A stretch of 64,000 nt of DNA from a bacterium (GCA_023246195.1 JAHFIW010000002.1:4259-68258); one strand, 5' to 3'. Positions 5,884 to 53,155 are shown, counted from the first letter of the stretch. Notes: generated from the sequence alone by a model not told the origin. Program-made: numbers and translations.

Positions 5884-7263
5884 TTGGGAGTCTTCAAAGG
5901 GTTAATGGGCTTGAAAAAGGTCTTAACCCTTTTGCTTTTGATGGTGAAGCGGCCATTTTTTTGGCTTTGTAGAGCGATTTTATACCCTTTGGTGGGGTTT
6001 TTTTACCTGGTATATCGTGTCATTAAGAAGCTGGCCCTCCGCTTATCGGAGTACATGCGTGATCGGGCCATGGGTTTATTGGCTAACCGCTACGCAATTC
6101 ACGCCATTGTGATCGTCTTGGCTTTTGCCGTGACCACTACCAATTTGCACGCTCAGGGAACCGGCACTCAACCCGATGCCAATGCGCCACAAAGCATTCT
6201 GGGCACGCTCACCCAAAATGAGGCGGATGCCGTGGTCATCGAAGAAGCTGGCTCCCAAAATGTGAATTCTTCCGAAGGTGCTGCCTACTTGGGTAGCCAG
6301 GCATTGAGCTCGCACGATTCCGCAGCCCAAGCCGATCAAAATCAGATGGATCCGTCCGCCGTAGACGTAGAGGCTTACGTCGAAGATCCCAGCGAGCTTA
6401 CGCTTTTTTCTCCGACGGCAAATGCCGTTCGCGTGCAGCCCGAAGTCGATGGCGGCAACGCTCCGTCCACTCGCAGCAAGGTTGAATCCTATGTCATTGC
6501 CGACGGTGACTCCCTTGGTTCTATCGCTCGTAAGTTTGGTCTCCGCACAGAAACCCTTTTGGCATCAAACGGACTCACCGTGCGCAGCGTGATTCACCCC
6601 GGCGACACGCTTAAGATCATGCCTGTCGACGGTGTCATTTATAAGGTGAAGTCCGGCGACACTGTCAACCGTATCGCCAATGCCTTCGGTAGCGATCCTG
6701 ACAAGATTATCGAGATGAACGGCTTGGCATCCGGCGCGGGACTGGCTCTTGGTCAGGAGCTCATTCTTCCTGATGGAAAATTGCCCGCTCCGCCGCCGCC
6801 GAAGCGTCCGTCGCGCATCGCAACCAACATAAGGGAGATTTTCGTGACGCCTCCTCCGTCACCTGACCGCGAAGACAGTTCGGATAACATGATTTGGCCA
6901 ACGGCAGTCCGCCGTATTACGCAGTACTTCGGCCATTATCGCGGAGGGTCGCGGCACACCGGTGTCGACATCGCGGGTCCGCAAGGTACGCCGGTGTACG
7001 CTGCCGAGGATGGCGTAGTCGCGCTTGCCGGTTGGAATAACGGCGGTTACGGCAACATGGTTCTCATCAATCACGGCGGCGGCATCTTCACCCGCTACGG
7101 TCACGCGTCCAAGTTGATTGCCAAAGCCGGTGACACCGTCAAGAAAGGCGATGTCATCATGCTCATGGGCACCACGGGAAACTCGACCGGCCCTCACTTG
7201 CACTTCGAGGTCATGACCGGCACTCCGCAACATCGCGTGAACCCGCTTGATTACATCAGATAA
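5884..7263 (+). CDS. LysM-domain M23 family metallopeptidase (cell-wall hydrolase), N-terminal membrane anchor
   Basis: Two LysM-like segments (GDSLGSIARKFG, GDTVNRIANAFG). M23 catalytic motifs HTGVDIA...GYGNMVLINHGGGIFTRYGH...GNSTGPHLHFEV. Confidence 0.85.
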   Translation: MGVFKGLMGLKKVLTLLLLMVKRPFFWLCRAILYPLVGFFYLVYRVIKKLALRLSEYMRDRAMGLLANRYAIHAIVIVLAFAVTTTNLHAQGTGTQPDANAPQSILGTLTQNEADAVVIEEAGSQNVNSSEGAAYLGSQALSSHDSAAQADQNQMDPSAVDVEAYVEDPSELTLFSPTANAVRVQPEVDGGNAPSTRSKVESYVIADGDSLGSIARKFGLRTETLLASNGLTVRSVIHPGDTLKIMPVDGVIYKVKSGDTVNRIANAFGSDPDKIIEMNGLASGAGLALGQELILPDGKLPAPPPPKRPSRIATNIREIFVTPPPSPDREDSSDNMIWPTAVRRITQYFGHYRGGSRHTGVDIAGPQGTPVYAAEDGVVALAGWNNGGYGNMVLINHGGGIFTRYGHASKLIAKAGDTVKKGDVIMLMGTTGNSTGPHLHFEVMTGTPQHRVNPLDYIR

Positions 7264-7350
7264 GCGTTCCGCGTGACGTATGAAAAATGGGGCTTGCAGC
7301 CTCATTTTTCATACGCAAATTTTCTTGATGTCGCTTGCGTGAAAGTAGCG

Positions 7351-8868
7351 TCAATTTCCTCGGCGTTCGCGATAGTGAATCGCTTCGGCGACGTGTGTCG
7401 CAAGGATGCCGTCCTGTCCGTCGAGGTCGGCGATGGTTCGGGCAAGCTTGATGACGCGTACGGCCGCACGCGCGGAGAGCTTGAGCCTGTTGGCAGCGGC
7501 GACGAGAAGCGAATCTGCATCGGGCGGAAGCGGGCAGAGTTTTTTGAGCATGGCGTGACTCATTTCCGCGTTGGTGAAGATCCCGTGCTTTTTGAGGCGG
7601 GCGTATTGCCGGTCACGGGCAGACTGAACCCTTTGGCGGATTACCGCGCTCGACTCTTCCTCGGAGCCGGCGAGCAGGCGACCGACGTCGACCTTAGGAA
7701 CTTCGACGTGCAGGTCTATCCGATCCAGGAGCGGGCCGGAAATTTTGCGTCCATACTTGGCGACTTGCGCGGGGTTGCAGCTGCACAGCTGATCGGGGTC
7801 GGTGGCGAATCCGCAAGGGCAGGGATTTTGCGCTGCCACGAGCATGAATTTTGCCGGCAGCCGTACTGTGCCGCTGGCTCTCGAAATAGTCACGAAACCG
7901 TCTTCCAGCGGTTGGCGCAGGTTTTCCAGAGCCGAGCGCGGGAACTCCGGGAACTCATCCAGGAACAGCACTCCGCGATGCGCCAACGTGACTTCGCCGG
8001 GCTTGGGGAATGAGCCGCCGCCGATCAGCGCCACGCCCGATGCGGTGTGATGCGGAGACCGGAACGGGCGTTCGGTCATCACCGCGCCAGCCTTGATGAT
8101 TCCCGACGCGCTGGCGATCTTGGTGACTTCGAGCATTTCCTCCTTGGTCATCGCCGGCAAAATCGAAGGCAATGCGCGCGTGAGCACGGTCTTGCCTGAA
8201 CCGGGCGGTCCGGAGAGCAATACGTTGTGTCCGCCAGCCGCCGCGATCTCCAGCGCGCGCTTCGCTTGGTGCTGGCCCACTACCGACGCGAAGTCGGCCT
8301 CGGTGCGCGCCTGCAGCAACTCCGGCAGCGGTCGCGGTTCCGACTGTTGGATGATTTCCGCGCGCGTGAAGTGGGCGATCAGTTGCGACAGTGAGCTAAT
8401 CGCGAATACGCGAACGCCGGAGGCGAGAGTCGCTTCTCCGGCATTTTCTTTTGGCACGTACAGTTCGTCGATGCCGCGTTCCGAAGCCATCAGCGCGATC
8501 GACAGCACTCCAGCAACCGGCCGCACGCTGCCATCAAGCGCGAGTTCTCCGACGAACAGCCGATTCGGATTTTTGTGGCGCGGCACCGCCCCGCTCGCTT
8601 CGAGTATGGCCACCGCAATCGGCAGATCATACGACGGGCCTTCTTTTTTGATGTCGGCAGGAGCCAGGTTCACGGTGATGCGCGTGCGTGGAAAGGGGAG
8701 TCCTCCGTTCTTAAGCGCTGTCTTGATGCGCTCCTTCGATTCTTGCACTGAAGCGTCCGGGAGGCCGACAATGACGAAATTGGGCAAGCCCTGAGCGATG
8801 TCAGCTTCGACATCTACGGGAGAGGCATCGATGCCGACGAGGGCGGCGGATTGGATGGTTGCGGGCAT
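7351..8868 (-). CDS. comM: YifB/ComM family Mg-chelatase-like AAA+ ATPase
   Basis: N-terminal Lon-protease-like domain, Walker A GPPGSGKT and a C-terminal Mg-chelatase domain. Start chosen at MPATIQSAALVG. Confidence 0.85.
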   Translation of the reverse strand: MPATIQSAALVGIDASPVDVEADIAQGLPNFVIVGLPDASVQESKERIKTALKNGGLPFPRTRITVNLAPADIKKEGPSYDLPIAVAILEASGAVPRHKNPNRLFVGELALDGSVRPVAGVLSIALMASERGIDELYVPKENAGEATLASGVRVFAISSLSQLIAHFTRAEIIQQSEPRPLPELLQARTEADFASVVGQHQAKRALEIAAAGGHNVLLSGPPGSGKTVLTRALPSILPAMTKEEMLEVTKIASASGIIKAGAVMTERPFRSPHHTASGVALIGGGSFPKPGEVTLAHRGVLFLDEFPEFPRSALENLRQPLEDGFVTISRASGTVRLPAKFMLVAAQNPCPCGFATDPDQLCSCNPAQVAKYGRKISGPLLDRIDLHVEVPKVDVGRLLAGSEEESSAVIRQRVQSARDRQYARLKKHGIFTNAEMSHAMLKKLCPLPPDADSLLVAAANRLKLSARAAVRVIKLARTIADLDGQDGILATHVAEAIHYRERRGN

Positions 8869-15925: not shown

Positions 15926-16221
15926 ATTATGTGGTGCCTCCGGCAGCAGCCGTGGCTATTCGCGAACGACCCAGGATTAACCAAGTCGTCGTATGAGTTA
16001 CCTGCCGATGGTAACAGCATACTTAGGCTTTGTAAAGGGGTGTTTTGAGGGTAAAGAAGCGAACGTCAGCATTGACAATTTGCTCAAATGTGCCATATTG
16101 AGCCCGTTCTTCATTATGAAGACGAACGTGCAAGGCGTAATCCTTGTCCTTTCTACTCGGGAAACTCAAGCGCTGGCTATAAGGCTGTCACGTGAGCATA
16201 TCGAGGAATGAAGGCTTCATC

Positions 16222-16740
16222 ATGTCGCACCTTACTTCCGATCAGATTGCAGAGCTCATTGCCATCGACAACCGATGTCCCGGTATCCGCAAGGAAGTCC
16301 AGGAGCTGATTTGTCAGCTGACCTCTGGCAGCAAGGTCAAGAATCTTGCGCAGATGGTTGCCCTCGGCAATTACGACTACGTCAACGAGGACATCGTCGA
16401 GAGGAACTTCCCGACGGACCCCGTTCGCTTTACGACAGGGGGGACGAAGGTCTTTCTCCTCAGCCACGAGATGACCACGGCGCGACTCAAAGAGACGATG
16501 GTCGGAAACGGCTGCGAGCCCGGCTTGATCGAGAGTCTCCTCGCCTATGGTGCGGAACATCCTGAGGAGCAGAGGGATCACCCCATCGTCGCACTGGGTT
16601 CCTCCTGGGTGAGCTCCAACGGCCATCGCTACGTCCCGTACTTGTACGGAGGCCGCAGTCAGCGCGGACTGCACCTAGACCGTGGCGGCTCAGAGCGCCG
16701 TTGGGGTACGGATTGCCGGTTCCTCGCCCGTTGCAAGTAA
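16222..16740 (+). CDS. Uncharacterised conserved protein, paralog 1 of a two-member family in this window
   Basis: 172 aa, ATG at 16222 preceded by GAGGAATGAAGG. ~50% identical over the C-terminal ~130 aa to the 51952..52524 product: LAQMVA.G.YD..N.DI.E.NF ... MTTA ... ELLAYGAE.PEEQR..PIVALGSSWV ... RFLAR.K. Gly/Arg-rich tail. Confidence 0.6.
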   Translation: MSHLTSDQIAELIAIDNRCPGIRKEVQELICQLTSGSKVKNLAQMVALGNYDYVNEDIVERNFPTDPVRFTTGGTKVFLLSHEMTTARLKETMVGNGCEPGLIESLLAYGAEHPEEQRDHPIVALGSSWVSSNGHRYVPYLYGGRSQRGLHLDRGGSERRWGTDCRFLARCK

Positions 16741-16784
16741 CCCTCGGACGTTTGGGTTCTTAGTTCTGGCCCTCGGCCCCGTTT

Positions 16785-16820
16785 CCGTCCGCTACTTTGG
16801 TAGTGGACGGAATTTTTTAT
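16785..16820 (+). terminator. Intrinsic terminator of paralog 1
   Basis: Hairpin CCGTCCGCTAC-TTTG-GTAGTGGACGG followed by AATTTTTTAT. Confidence 0.6.
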
Positions 16821-16890
16821 TTGAGACGAAACAGCTTGTGGCTACGGTTGCAGGCGGTCAAAGCTGGGTTCAAACGATTTCCTGAATGAC
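16821..16890 (+). other. Conserved non-coding element, copy 1, immediately 3' of the terminator
   Basis: ~85% identical to 52621..52693: TTGAGACGAAACAGCTTGTGGCTACGGTTGCAGGCGGTCAAAGCTGGGTT...GAATGACG. A 1-nt indel relative to copy 2 argues against coding. Confidence 0.45.
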
Positions 16891-16949
16891 GTACGATGCC
16901 TCGCGTTCCGCTTCCGCAGGTGCGTCGCATAACGTATACTACTAACCGT

Positions 16950-17897
16950 ATGGCCAAATCATCCGAGCTCATCACCGATTATCTCAGTTATCTCGAGGTC
17001 GAGCGCAACCGTTCCGAACGGACGGTCAAGAATTATGATTTTTATCTGCGCCGCTTCTTTGCCTGGGCCAAAGACGCCCAACCTGAAGCAATCACCCTCG
17101 ACATGGTCCGTGCCTATCGCATCTGGCTCAACCGCTACAAGAATGATCAGGGCCAAGGAATGAAGAAGAATACCCAAAATTATCACCTCATCGCCCTTCG
17201 TTCTTTTCTCAAGTACCTGGCAAAACGCGACATTAAGACGCTGGCTCCCGAAAAAATCGAGTTGGCACGCATGCCCGAGCGCTCCGTGGAGTTTTTGGAC
17301 GCTCCGGAGCTGGAACGCTTGCTGGCGGCACCTCTTGATGGGGCAAAGGCGGTCGACAATAACGTCTCCATTTTGCAGCTTCGCGACAAGGCCATCCTCG
17401 AGATGCTCTTTTCAACCGGTTTGCGCGTGTCGGAATTGGCCGGCCTCAACCGAAAAATCATCAATTTGCAGCGCGAGGAGTTCACCGTTCGCGGAAAAGG
17501 GGACAAGCCGCGCGTGGTGTTCATGTCTCAGCAGGCCAGATATTGGCTTAAGCAGTACCTTGACCGCAGACGAGACGTGGAACCGGCGATCTTCGTCAGC
17601 CACGACCGAGCGGCTAACGGACGCGACACTGTCGGCGGGCTCACCCCGCGCAGCATTCAGCGCACGGTCGAGCACTATGCTACGGCCGCTGGCATCACCA
17701 AACGCATCACTCCCCACACTGTCCGCCATACCTTCGCTACCGATTTATTGCGCAATGGAGCCGATATTCGCAGCGTTCAGACTCTTTTGGGGCACGCCTC
17801 CATCACTACCACCCAAATCTACACGCATATCACTGACGAACGTTTGAGGGAGGTATATAACAGCTTCCATGGCAAGCGGCGGAAAAAAGACGGATAG
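16950..17897 (+). CDS. xerC: Tyrosine recombinase, XerC/XerD family
   Basis: N-terminal SAM-like core-binding domain (ITDYLSYLEVERNRSERTVKNY). C-terminal catalytic R..H.R..Y (RHTFATDLL...LGHASITTTQIYTHI). An alternative upstream start lies at 16896. Confidence 0.85.
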   Translation: MAKSSELITDYLSYLEVERNRSERTVKNYDFYLRRFFAWAKDAQPEAITLDMVRAYRIWLNRYKNDQGQGMKKNTQNYHLIALRSFLKYLAKRDIKTLAPEKIELARMPERSVEFLDAPELERLLAAPLDGAKAVDNNVSILQLRDKAILEMLFSTGLRVSELAGLNRKIINLQREEFTVRGKGDKPRVVFMSQQARYWLKQYLDRRRDVEPAIFVSHDRAANGRDTVGGLTPRSIQRTVEHYATAAGITKRITPHTVRHTFATDLLRNGADIRSVQTLLGHASITTTQIYTHITDERLREVYNSFHGKRRKKDG

Positions 17898-51951: not shown

Positions 51952-52524
51952 ATGGGAAAGAATCGTGAGTTCGTCAGCGCATCCGGCACGGCATACGACG
52001 TCGTGCAGAAGCTCGCCCAGGCCGTCTACGCCCGGGGCGGGGACGACGACAGCATCCGCCGGGTCATCTCCGACGAGGCGCTCCGAGGCAAGCTGGCCGA
52101 CCTCATCGTCGGCACTGCGGCCAGGACCCTCGCCCAGATGGTCGCCGCCGGCCGCTACGACTGGGCCAACTCGGACATCAACGAGAAGAACTTCAAAGTC
52201 AGCGCCGAGCGGTTCACCGCCGACGGCCTCGAGGCCATCCATTTCGGCAAGGTGATGACCACCGCACAGGTCGAGATCAATCTCGACCGTCGCGGCCTGC
52301 GTTCGGCCTGGATCGAGGAACTCCTCGCCTACGGCGCGGAGAACCCCGAGGAACAGCGCAAGTTCCCGATCGTCGCCCTCGGTTCCTCATGGGTGAATCC
52401 CGGTGGCGGCCGCGGCGTCCTGGACCTGTGCGGGGGCGGCGGTCGGCGCGGGCTGAGCCTGCGCTGGGGCGGCCCCGGGTGCCGCTGGGACGCGGACTAC
52501 CGCTTCCTCGCCCGTCGCAAGTAG
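51952..52524 (+). CDS. Uncharacterised conserved protein, paralog 2 (very GC-rich copy)
   Basis: 190 aa, ATG at 51952 preceded by AGGAGAGAG. ~50% identical to the 16222..16740 product. ~70-75% GC versus ~57% for the window. Confidence 0.6.
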   Translation: MGKNREFVSASGTAYDVVQKLAQAVYARGGDDDSIRRVISDEALRGKLADLIVGTAARTLAQMVAAGRYDWANSDINEKNFKVSAERFTADGLEAIHFGKVMTTAQVEINLDRRGLRSAWIEELLAYGAENPEEQRKFPIVALGSSWVNPGGGRGVLDLCGGGGRRGLSLRWGGPGCRWDADYRFLARRK

Positions 52525-52568
52525 CCCTGGGGCGCTTGGGCGCTTAGTCCTGGCCCTTTGGCCCTTAT

Positions 52569-52604
52569 CTGGCCGCGAACTCAGTTCGCGGCCAGACTTT
52601 TTTA
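52569..52604 (+). terminator. Intrinsic terminator of paralog 2
   Basis: CTGGCCGCGAAC-TCAG-TTCGCGGCCAG + ACTTTTTTTAT. Same position as copy 1's hairpin but a different sequence (compensatory). Confidence 0.6.
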
Positions 52605-52620
52605 TGCTAAAATCGAAACG

Positions 52621-52693
52621 GATGAGACGAAACAGCCTGCGGCCACGGTTTCAGGCGGTCAAATCTGGGCCCGGGCGATCTTCCGGAATGACG
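52621..52693 (+). other. Conserved non-coding element, copy 2
   Basis: GATGAGACGAAACAGCCTGCGGCCACGGTTTCAGGCGGTCAAATCTGGGCC...GGAATGACG, homologous to 16821..16890. Preceded by a partial internal duplication AATCGAAACG. Confidence 0.45.
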
Positions 52694-52752
52694 CGCGACA
52701 CGTCGCGTGCCAGCGCGAATTCGTCGGAGGCGGCAGGTTCTGGAAGGCGATG

Positions 52753-52950
52753 GGCGGCGACGCGGATCATGCTGGCCCCACGACGACTTCCTCCGACACC
52801 CGCGCCTACGTGAAGTACCTTCTGCGGGAGGGGAGCGCCACCGAGAAGCGGGAACTGCTCGCCAACCTGAAGAGCAGGCTGACGTACAAGGACAAGACGG
52901 TGACGCTGCTGGATGCCAGCCCCGTCGCGATCATCTCGGCCTCTTCGTAG
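52753..52950 (+). CDS. Possible small GC-rich ORF (66 aa) downstream of the conserved element
   Basis: GGAAGG-N5-ATG. GC3-rich codons. Ends 15 nt before a strong terminator. The longer 52558 ORF overlaps the non-coding element and is rejected. Confidence 0.3.
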   Translation, partial: GGDADHAGPTTTSSDTRAYVKYLLREGSATEKRELLANLKSRLTYKDKTVTLLDASPVAIISASS

Positions 52951-53065: not shown

Positions 53066-53155
53066 TGGCGGAGAGGGTGGGAGTCGAACCCACGTTACCC
53101 TTGCGGGTAAATCAGATTTCGAGTCTGACGCGTTCGACCACTCTGCCACCTCTCC
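53066..53155 (-). tRNA. tRNA-Ser (anticodon CGA), long variable arm, CCA encoded
   Basis: Reverse complement GGAGAGGTGGCAGAGTGGTCGAACGCGTCAGACTCGAAATCTGA...GGGTTCGACTCCCACCCTCTCCGCCA folds as a class II tRNA. Confidence 0.9.

Follow-up and report, generated by a model that had tools for sequence, protein, structure and literature searches.

Two related genes, and the non-coding sequence that follows each of them, lie on the plus strand of a 64,000-nucleotide (nt) stretch of bacterial DNA (GCA_023246195.1 JAHFIW010000002.1:4259-68258, hereafter the window): copy 1 at 16222..16740, encoding 172 amino acids (aa), and copy 2 at 51952..52524, an open reading frame (ORF) of 190 aa listed here as P0005. 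Both are paralogous target (variable-protein) genes of diversity-generating retroelements (DGRs) of the Patescibacteria type, most likely orphaned and frozen, a reading held with considerable confidence. A preliminary description of this DNA had proposed an undescribed selfish, defence or regulatory system. However, the C-terminus of the protein is the variable region (VR) of a DGR in 25 relatives, which makes the system one of a known kind, and incomplete. The window's best candidate for an unknown system is thus resolved as a DGR target family, and a false lead is removed.

The evidence comes from relatives of the two genes. In 24 loci drawn from GTDB and JGI, the last ~130 nt of the family gene are repeated 330-390 nt downstream, and mismatches between the two repeats fall almost only at adenines of the downstream copy (19/19, 21/21, 23/23, 24/24 and similar counts). 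In a further locus (L089, with protein P0004), from the clade closest to the window genes, the VR differs from its template repeat (TR) at 15 of 34 TR adenines but at only 1 of 107 other positions. Mismatches falling almost wholly at TR adenines are the defining mark of a DGR, present in the 24 loci and in L089; judged by it, the last ~47 codons of the family gene are the variable region of a DGR in 25 related loci. TRs near homologues were also examined for a lack of adenine bias; the bias is present and the assignment as DGR targets stands. The TR consensus reads GSVW.N.NGNRNVPYLN.ND..KRNLNLNW.DNDWN.NYRFLAVR, and its Asn codons coincide with the variable columns of the family alignment. The machinery is found alongside: a reverse transcriptase (RT) match was obtained by tblastn in 27 of 88 loci, and in ~25 of those 27 an avd gene on the minus strand and the RT gene on the plus strand lie ~500 nt downstream of the family gene. 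The avd gene is present in 27 of the 88 loci, including L002 and L003, and the contigs of P0007 and P0009 carry both bAvd (Pfam) and RVT_1 genes. Relatives with cognate TRs include P0007 (E 1e-17 to copy 1) and P0004 (E 6e-31). Gene order in intact relatives is target, TR, avd on the opposite strand, and RT.

In the window, VR1 occupies the last 47 codons of copy 1 (GSSWV...RFLARCK; 16597..16737, plus strand) and VR2 those of copy 2 (52381..52521, plus strand). Both align codon by codon and free of gaps with the VRs of the relatives, and VR1 aligns gaplessly to the VR/TR pairs of the 24 loci and L089. Adenine makes up 14% of VR1 and 23% of the rest of its gene, 7% of VR2 and 20% of the rest; across the family, the median is 11% in VRs and 26% in TRs. 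The "mixed GC" formerly read as one sign of a selfish, defence or regulatory module reflects this adenine depletion of the VRs instead. Set against the L089 TR, VR1 mismatches at 62% of adenine sites and 30% of the others (p 0.001), while in VR2 mismatches are concentrated at TR adenines (76% versus 22% elsewhere, p 2e-8). Together, the low adenine content and the divergence biased towards adenine sites indicate that both copies bear the footprint of past adenine mutagenesis atop ordinary divergence, and hence that both would have been diversified in the past. Mismatches between VR1 and VR2 are spread over codon positions as 15/12/13, with no third-position excess (29/27/41 in the coding core). 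The two VRs are not themselves a TR/VR pair: among 45 mismatches, 18 and 5 have adenine in one or the other copy. They also differ at 25 of 107 sites that are not adenine in the closest intact TR (L089), which argues that one shared TR is not keeping them alike; a single TR serving both copies is therefore unsupported.

The protein belongs to a large Patescibacteria family without a Pfam model. Scans of both copy proteins against Pfam, NCBIfam, PHROGs and PADLOC gave no significant match, in line with the first impression that the protein could not be assigned to a known family, and a sequence profile search of the PDB found no chain similar to the family. A word-indexed search returned just 11 relatives, and the profile built from these retrieved 6859 cluster representatives, 1142 of them at E <= 1e-30; the matches are mostly 180-210 aa long. 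Since so many representatives go with no model match, the family is large but unannotated. Scanning of GTDB genomes yielded 97 family loci, the majority in genomes labelled Patescibacteria. A phage origin was dropped, as a search of 2.9 million viral contigs (IMG/VR) gave 3 family matches only. An AlphaFold model has a C-type lectin fold, and the family VR, like the C-terminal domain of copy 1, is predicted to be carried on this scaffold, so that a fold prediction is now available for a very large family. What had been called a near-invariant C-terminal core is the scaffold plus the VR. Solved DGR proteins of this fold, such as Treponema TvpA (2y3c), differ from the family in that no PDB chain resembles it at the sequence level, and in size, the family domain being much smaller, at about 130 aa, and its N-terminus short and helical. 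Proteins P0012-P0035 (300-570 aa) contain two or three tandem family domains, showing that arrays of several domains also make use of the small C-lectin module.

The layout of the homologues resembles that of DGRs of Patescibacteria, a group within the candidate phyla radiation (CPR), as far as these are set out in the relevant portions of Wu et al. (2018, PMC5758913) and Roux et al. (2021, PMC8144416), the latter placing Patescibacteria DGRs in "clade 2". In our own reading, the order target, TR, opposite-strand avd and RT would correspond to the "B3 architecture" of Wu et al. (2018, PMC5758913), which is available to this comparison by its prevalence only. The same portions of both papers describe CPR targets as small proteins without recognisable domains or transmembrane segments, which fits the family, and leave their fold open, where a C-type lectin fold is predicted here. 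The family is not mapped to any of the VR classes UVR1-6, as these appear in part of Wu et al. (2018, PMC5758913). Unlike the CPR DGRs, the window holds targets and leader stubs only, with no TR, avd or RT.

Similarity between the two copies extends well beyond the proteins, which are 50% identical over 143 aligned aa (E 1e-39), as estimated before. DNA alignment and self-BLAST of the window follow it past both stop codons. Identity is 39% in the N-terminal coding part, which amounts to none, 62% in the coding core, 72% in the last 47 codons and 75% in the 44 nt after the stop; the hairpin segment that follows is 60% identical with its structure kept, the 53-nt core of the non-coding element 85%, and the next ~55 nt 69%. 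Past 16925 the value is 37%, which is no homology. The interval between hairpin and element differs by a 16-nt indel. Homology outside the ORFs, as first reported, thus holds and runs through a 13-base-pair (bp) hairpin and a ~100-nt non-coding element. Of the ~70-nt, ~85% identical element then described, the degree of identity stands for the 53-nt core, while the real length is about 105-120 nt. Both ORFs are intact and retain all family-invariant residues.

Downstream of the stop codon, family genes share one order of features: first CTTGG-like repeats with a period of 8 nt, over 40-60 nt, then a GC-rich hairpin and its T-run, an AT-rich stretch and, where a TR follows, a conserved element starting GGATAGTA. 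In the window the repeats form the post-stop spacer at 16741..16782 in copy 1 and at 52525..52567 in copy 2 (both plus strand, 75% identical), the position taken in DGRs by the initiation of mutagenic homing (IMH) sequence; any function here would follow from that position. Family-wide, "nnCTTGGn" occurs 0.40 times per 8 nt against 0.09 in shuffled sequence, with a modal spacing of 8 and a next one of 16, and the same tandem repeats stand between stop and hairpin in most of L009-L088. The 3' flank of the TR reads AACTCTCTT in L002, L003 and L089, unlike the CTTGG-like 8-mers of the VR flank. The repeats may be a target-specific recognition sequence.

The hairpins have 13-bp stems and loops of 4 nt in copy 1 (16783..16818 with the T-run, hairpin 16783-16812, 42 nt after the stop) and 3 nt in copy 2 (52568..52604, hairpin 52568-52596, 43 nt after the stop), both on the plus strand. 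Their stems differ in sequence and agree in offset and structure, which bears out the earlier observation of intrinsic terminators at matching positions. Under strict criteria, a GC-rich hairpin with a T-run is found in 51 of 86 distinct family downstream regions, with a median stem of 12 bp. This "compensatory terminator" corresponds to the hairpin/cruciform of DGR targets, with a putative role in homing. In the Bordetella phage BPP-1, efficient retrohoming requires an inverted repeat immediately 3' of the VR, for which structure counts and sequence does not, and such repeats nearly always follow VRs (Guo et al., 2011, PMC3240598). The family resembles the BPP-1 DGR (mtd) in having the VR at the 3' end of a gene for a C-type lectin fold, a GC-rich inverted repeat shortly downstream that is conserved in structure rather than sequence and, in relatives of the window genes, adenine-specific VR/TR differences. 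The differences are several. In phage DGRs the stems are 7-10 bp long, the loops GRNA and the distance to the VR end 4-34 bp (Guo et al., 2011, PMC3240598), whereas those of the window are 13 bp with loops TTTG and TCA, 42-43 nt from the stop codon. The T-run implies that the window hairpins also terminate transcription, unlike the phage DGR description. In addition, the IMH position holds 8-nt periodic CTTGG-like repeats, and avd lies downstream of the TR on the opposite strand.

What is the conserved element that follows the hairpin? It is the 5' domain of a leader that precedes the TR in the template RNA, and covariation across genomes supports its structure. A seed alignment of 17 instances supports two helices, P1 (3 bp) and P2 (5 bp), with 90.8% of cells paired against 25-52% when the partner is slid, and with 38 double-sided changes; none of 500 shuffles did equally well. 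The P2 loop is conserved (YGGYYAMGGYU), and G·U pairs occur on the plus strand only. The covariance model R1 finds 29 sites in 850 kb, all on the plus strand and some outside the seed, roughly 20-320 nt and mostly 90-180 nt downstream of a family gene; L089 is a further, independent match, and the window gives its two known sites and no others. In the 29-sequence alignment, which is fitted to model R1, 98% of cells pair, with 74 double-sided changes. Single-sequence minimum free energy folds of the window stubs are no better than those of shuffles (z +1.1 and +0.2), so that the claim of structure rests on covariation. An extended -10 box (TGnTAnnnT) stands 15-16 nt upstream of the leader in 18 of 25 sites, which indicates that the element is the 5' end of a separate transcript running into the TR. 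The leader continues with a second hairpin, whose loop repeats GGNTACGNYU, and then a GATACTTGG box. A long-range partner for the leader loop was sought, and none was consistent.

In copy 1, domain 1 with P1, P2 and loop GGCTACGGTT lies at 16819..16871 (R1 match 38.7 bits, E 2e-6), followed at 16872..16925 by the linker (GAATGA) and the remnant of the second hairpin, as placed by alignment with copy 2, L089 and L002. Copy 2 has an extended -10 box, TGCTAAAAT, at 52605..52613, 15 nt before the leader start, then domain 1 with P1, P2 and loop GGCCACGGTT at 52620..52672 (51.4 bits, E 1e-9), and the linker and second hairpin (CGCGAC/GTCGCG) at 52673..52740, which ends ahead of the GATACTTGG box and the TR. 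All these features are on the plus strand, and the "70-nt element" is leader domain 1 plus part of domain 2. Its presence beside homologues in other genomes, proposed as a check, was confirmed, together with a structure supported by covariation. The unit of protein and structured RNA proposed at the outset is real, but the RNA goes with the retroelement rather than with the protein: of the 68 family genes followed by 1.5 kb of sequence or more, 27 have a TR/RT downstream and 41 do not, and the leader occurs in 23 of the former and 4 of the latter (p 2.7e-10). The element is thus part of the template RNA and not of the target gene.

In BPP-1, cDNA synthesis depends on structured RNA at the flanks of the TR (Handa et al., 2018, PMC6182149), and some RT-associated motifs (Rfam RT-10 and RT-16) are suspected to be parts of DGRs (Weinberg et al., 2017, PMC5737381). 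Rfam gave no match to the window element even at E 10, only tRNAs at gathering score in the window and 13 loci, and nothing relevant at the E-value threshold on nine loci. In L036 (6755-6840), RT-16 (RF03019) matches just 5' of the TR, below threshold at 39.5 bits (cut-off 50; E 7e-5 on a short region), so RT-16 may be the TR-proximal part of the DGR leader in related elements. The window element differs from it as the extreme 5' leader domain, upstream of the part covered by this weak match, and it also falls outside the 40 nt upstream of TRs to which the analysis of Handa et al. (2024, bioRxiv 10.1101/2023.10.23.563531) was limited. With its covariation support it defines a motif for the start of the template RNA in these DGRs, one absent from Rfam and not found in the DGR-RNA literature compared. 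A second leader type was also observed, of the form GACAAAT...[stem, GGTYACGGCTT loop]...ATTTGTCCGCAAC, in L003 (~810-1000), L015, L029, L033, L034, L041, L045 and L048. It sits about 100-200 nt after the target stop, is captured weakly by R1, and its outer helix covaries by eye (GACAGAT/ATCTGTC, GACAAAC/GTTTGTC).

Both window copies keep leader domain 1, the GAATGA linker and the second hairpin, and lose homology to intact leaders before the GATACTTGG box, at about 16925 in copy 1 and about 52740 in copy 2, ~105-120 nt into the leader. The copy 2 promoter TGCTAAAAT is retained; copy 1 is without a -10 box, which was removed by a 16-nt deletion. The genome sequence surveyed for the missing parts comprises 69.4 kb, the window plus 4838 nt on its right and 570 nt on its left, taken from ENA contigs. 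Self-BLAST of the window shows no TR-like third copy of the VR. A tblastn search with a family-linked RT found no RT of the DGR clade (best E in the window 2.5), tblastn likewise found no avd in the window, and the 5.4 kb of flanks contained no TR, RT or avd. The lack of TR, avd and RT in the 69.4 kb makes both genes most likely orphaned targets with frozen VRs. Similar remnants, a target plus leader without machinery, occur in L009, L012, L023, L059 and at the first target of L003, with leaders cut at differing depths, and L009 retains a drifting TR (17 of 30 mismatches at adenine) without avd or RT. Cassettes at such different stages of decay, those of the window included, could help in dating when reduced genomes lost their DGRs and variable proteins became "frozen". 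In L003, the upstream regions of two distinct targets (1-197 and 1413-1609) are 83% identical over a length that takes in a promoter-like stretch and a hairpin, and the first target's cassette is broken by a 62-aa opposite-strand ORF that by inspection resembles a DNA-binding protein.

A working model can be outlined from these elements. In intact relatives, a promoter just past the target terminator would drive a ~230-290-nt leader followed by the TR. RT and Avd would copy the TR into cDNA with errors at adenines, the established DGR mechanism carried over to this family, and the cDNA would overwrite the last ~47 codons of the target, the VR on its C-type-lectin-fold scaffold, with the hairpin and sequence immediately 3' of the VR steering its homing. 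In the window copies, the VRs would have been diversified in this way in the past, the cassettes then lost beyond ~105-120 nt of leader, and the VRs left frozen. Hairpin, repeats and leader are thus given presumptive roles, and the present inactivity of the copies is likewise the probable state. The simplest reading of their origin is that the cassettes decayed, or that an already truncated unit was duplicated.

Several points weigh against this account. L089, the source of the proxy TR, shows ~45% protein identity, and the adenine positions of that TR may not match those of the lost TRs. DGR activity of the family would be read from one kind of evidence, the adenine signature at the 25 related loci. 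The hairpin loops TTTG and TCA are off the GRNA consensus of phage DGR hairpins, and with their T-runs the hairpins are ordinary intrinsic terminators too. The survey covered 69.4 kb of the genome, and the copies could still be acted on by a DGR located outside it. No segment is as well conserved between the copies as leader domain 1 (85%; coding core 62%), the two stubs break off at a similar depth and copy 2 still has its promoter, a combination that simple neutral decay does not predict. A long intact period followed by recent losses could account for the high leader conservation, as could gene conversion or, with a low probability, a residual function of the stub.

One alternative, although unlikely, takes leader domain 1 (GGYYAMGGYU loop, own extended -10, ~185-245 nt 5' of the TR) as an undescribed functional RNA module of Patescibacteria DGRs, perhaps acting alone at loci that have no TR. 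The stub might then serve as a small RNA to recruit, or else to titrate, an RT-Avd acting in trans at the neighbouring target; regulation of the target is the other possibility.

It is distinctly unlikely that copies 1 and 2 are live remote targets of a DGR elsewhere in the genome, which would act in trans through the VR 3' end, the repeats and the hairpin. Speaking for it are the two intact ORFs, with all family-invariant residues retained, and a VR 3' end, post-stop region and hairpin maintained at 72-75% identity or by compensatory change. Elsewhere, 37 of 41 family genes without an RT also lack the leader, suggesting that remote or stand-alone targets are common in the family, and the 69.4 kb surveyed leaves room for such a DGR. 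However, the TR lies in cis, 330-390 nt downstream, in all intact family examples found, and the differences between the copies at 25 of 107 non-adenine TR positions show no single TR homogenising them. The P0001 sequence is moreover identical in three assemblies (NCBI, ENA and Logan), which may derive from one sample.

Retention of the stub for a use of its own after TR loss, as a small RNA from the copy 2 promoter or as a 3'/intergenic element acting on neighbouring genes, is improbable. It would explain why domain 1, at 85%, is conserved above any coding segment, why the copy 2 extended -10 stands at the canonical distance, and why stubs lacking TR and RT recur at the five loci named above. 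Against it, copy 1 has lost its promoter; the other stubs differ in depth and the L009 TR is decaying, which resembles stages of decay; and expression of the stub is a prediction. Finally, an undescribed selfish, defence or regulatory module, made of an unfamiliar protein and a dedicated structured RNA linked to tRNAs and a recombinase, has a negligible chance of being correct: the silence of Pfam, NCBIfam, PHROGs and PADLOC, the structured and conserved RNA, and the recombinase and tRNAs adjoining copy 1 are outweighed by a C-terminus that is a demonstrable DGR VR in 25 relatives, an RNA that accompanies the TR/RT rather than the protein, a close recombinase homologue at 1 of 80 other loci, the lack of an att-like tRNA-Ser repeat, and the 3 family matches in 2.9 million viral contigs.

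Reading the copies as orphaned DGR targets also yields a recipe for recognising further orphans that have no RT nearby: the protein ends in GSxW...RFLAxRK, the VR is poor in adenine, and CTTGG 8-mers, a hairpin and the leader follow.

The neighbourhood of copy 1 agrees with what was first described, a tyrosine recombinase gene (Pfam Phage_integrase match; 16950-17897, likely start 16950) followed by tRNA-Arg and tRNA-His. A similar recombinase is found at 1 of 80 other family loci, L009 of a Patescibacteria genome, where it is 62% identical to that of copy 1 and lies inverted, at 6986-7918 on the minus strand, directly after the decaying TR (6729-6875). As L009 alone shares it, the recombinase was not counted as belonging to the unit. 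Contrary to the earlier statement, copy 2 stands apart from tRNA-Ser; its homology ends about 52740 and the 3' end of the tRNA is at 53066, ~330 nt away. No repeat of the tRNA-Ser 3' end (an attachment, or att, site) longer than 13 nt exists in the window, and integration of the element at tRNA-Ser was rejected on this ground. A tRNA and recombinase setting therefore does not characterise the family. Between the copy 2 leader stub and tRNA-Ser lies a small ORF (…RAYVKYLLREGSATEKRELLANLKSRLTYKDKTVTLL…, 52750-52950, plus strand), for which Pfam, PHROGs, NCBIfam and PADLOC gave no match and the fetched loci no relative, and which could be read from the retained leader promoter.

A -10/transcription start site motif said to be shared upstream of both genes proved to be at chance level: local alignment of the two upstream regions reaches 14 at best, below the shuffle mean (15.9), and none of 89 other family genes has the motif upstream. 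Upstream of copy 1, one promoter alone resembles the consensus, TTGACA-16-CATATT with a TG, at 16072-16099 and ~125 nt before the start codon, a site that differs from the one proposed in the preliminary description.

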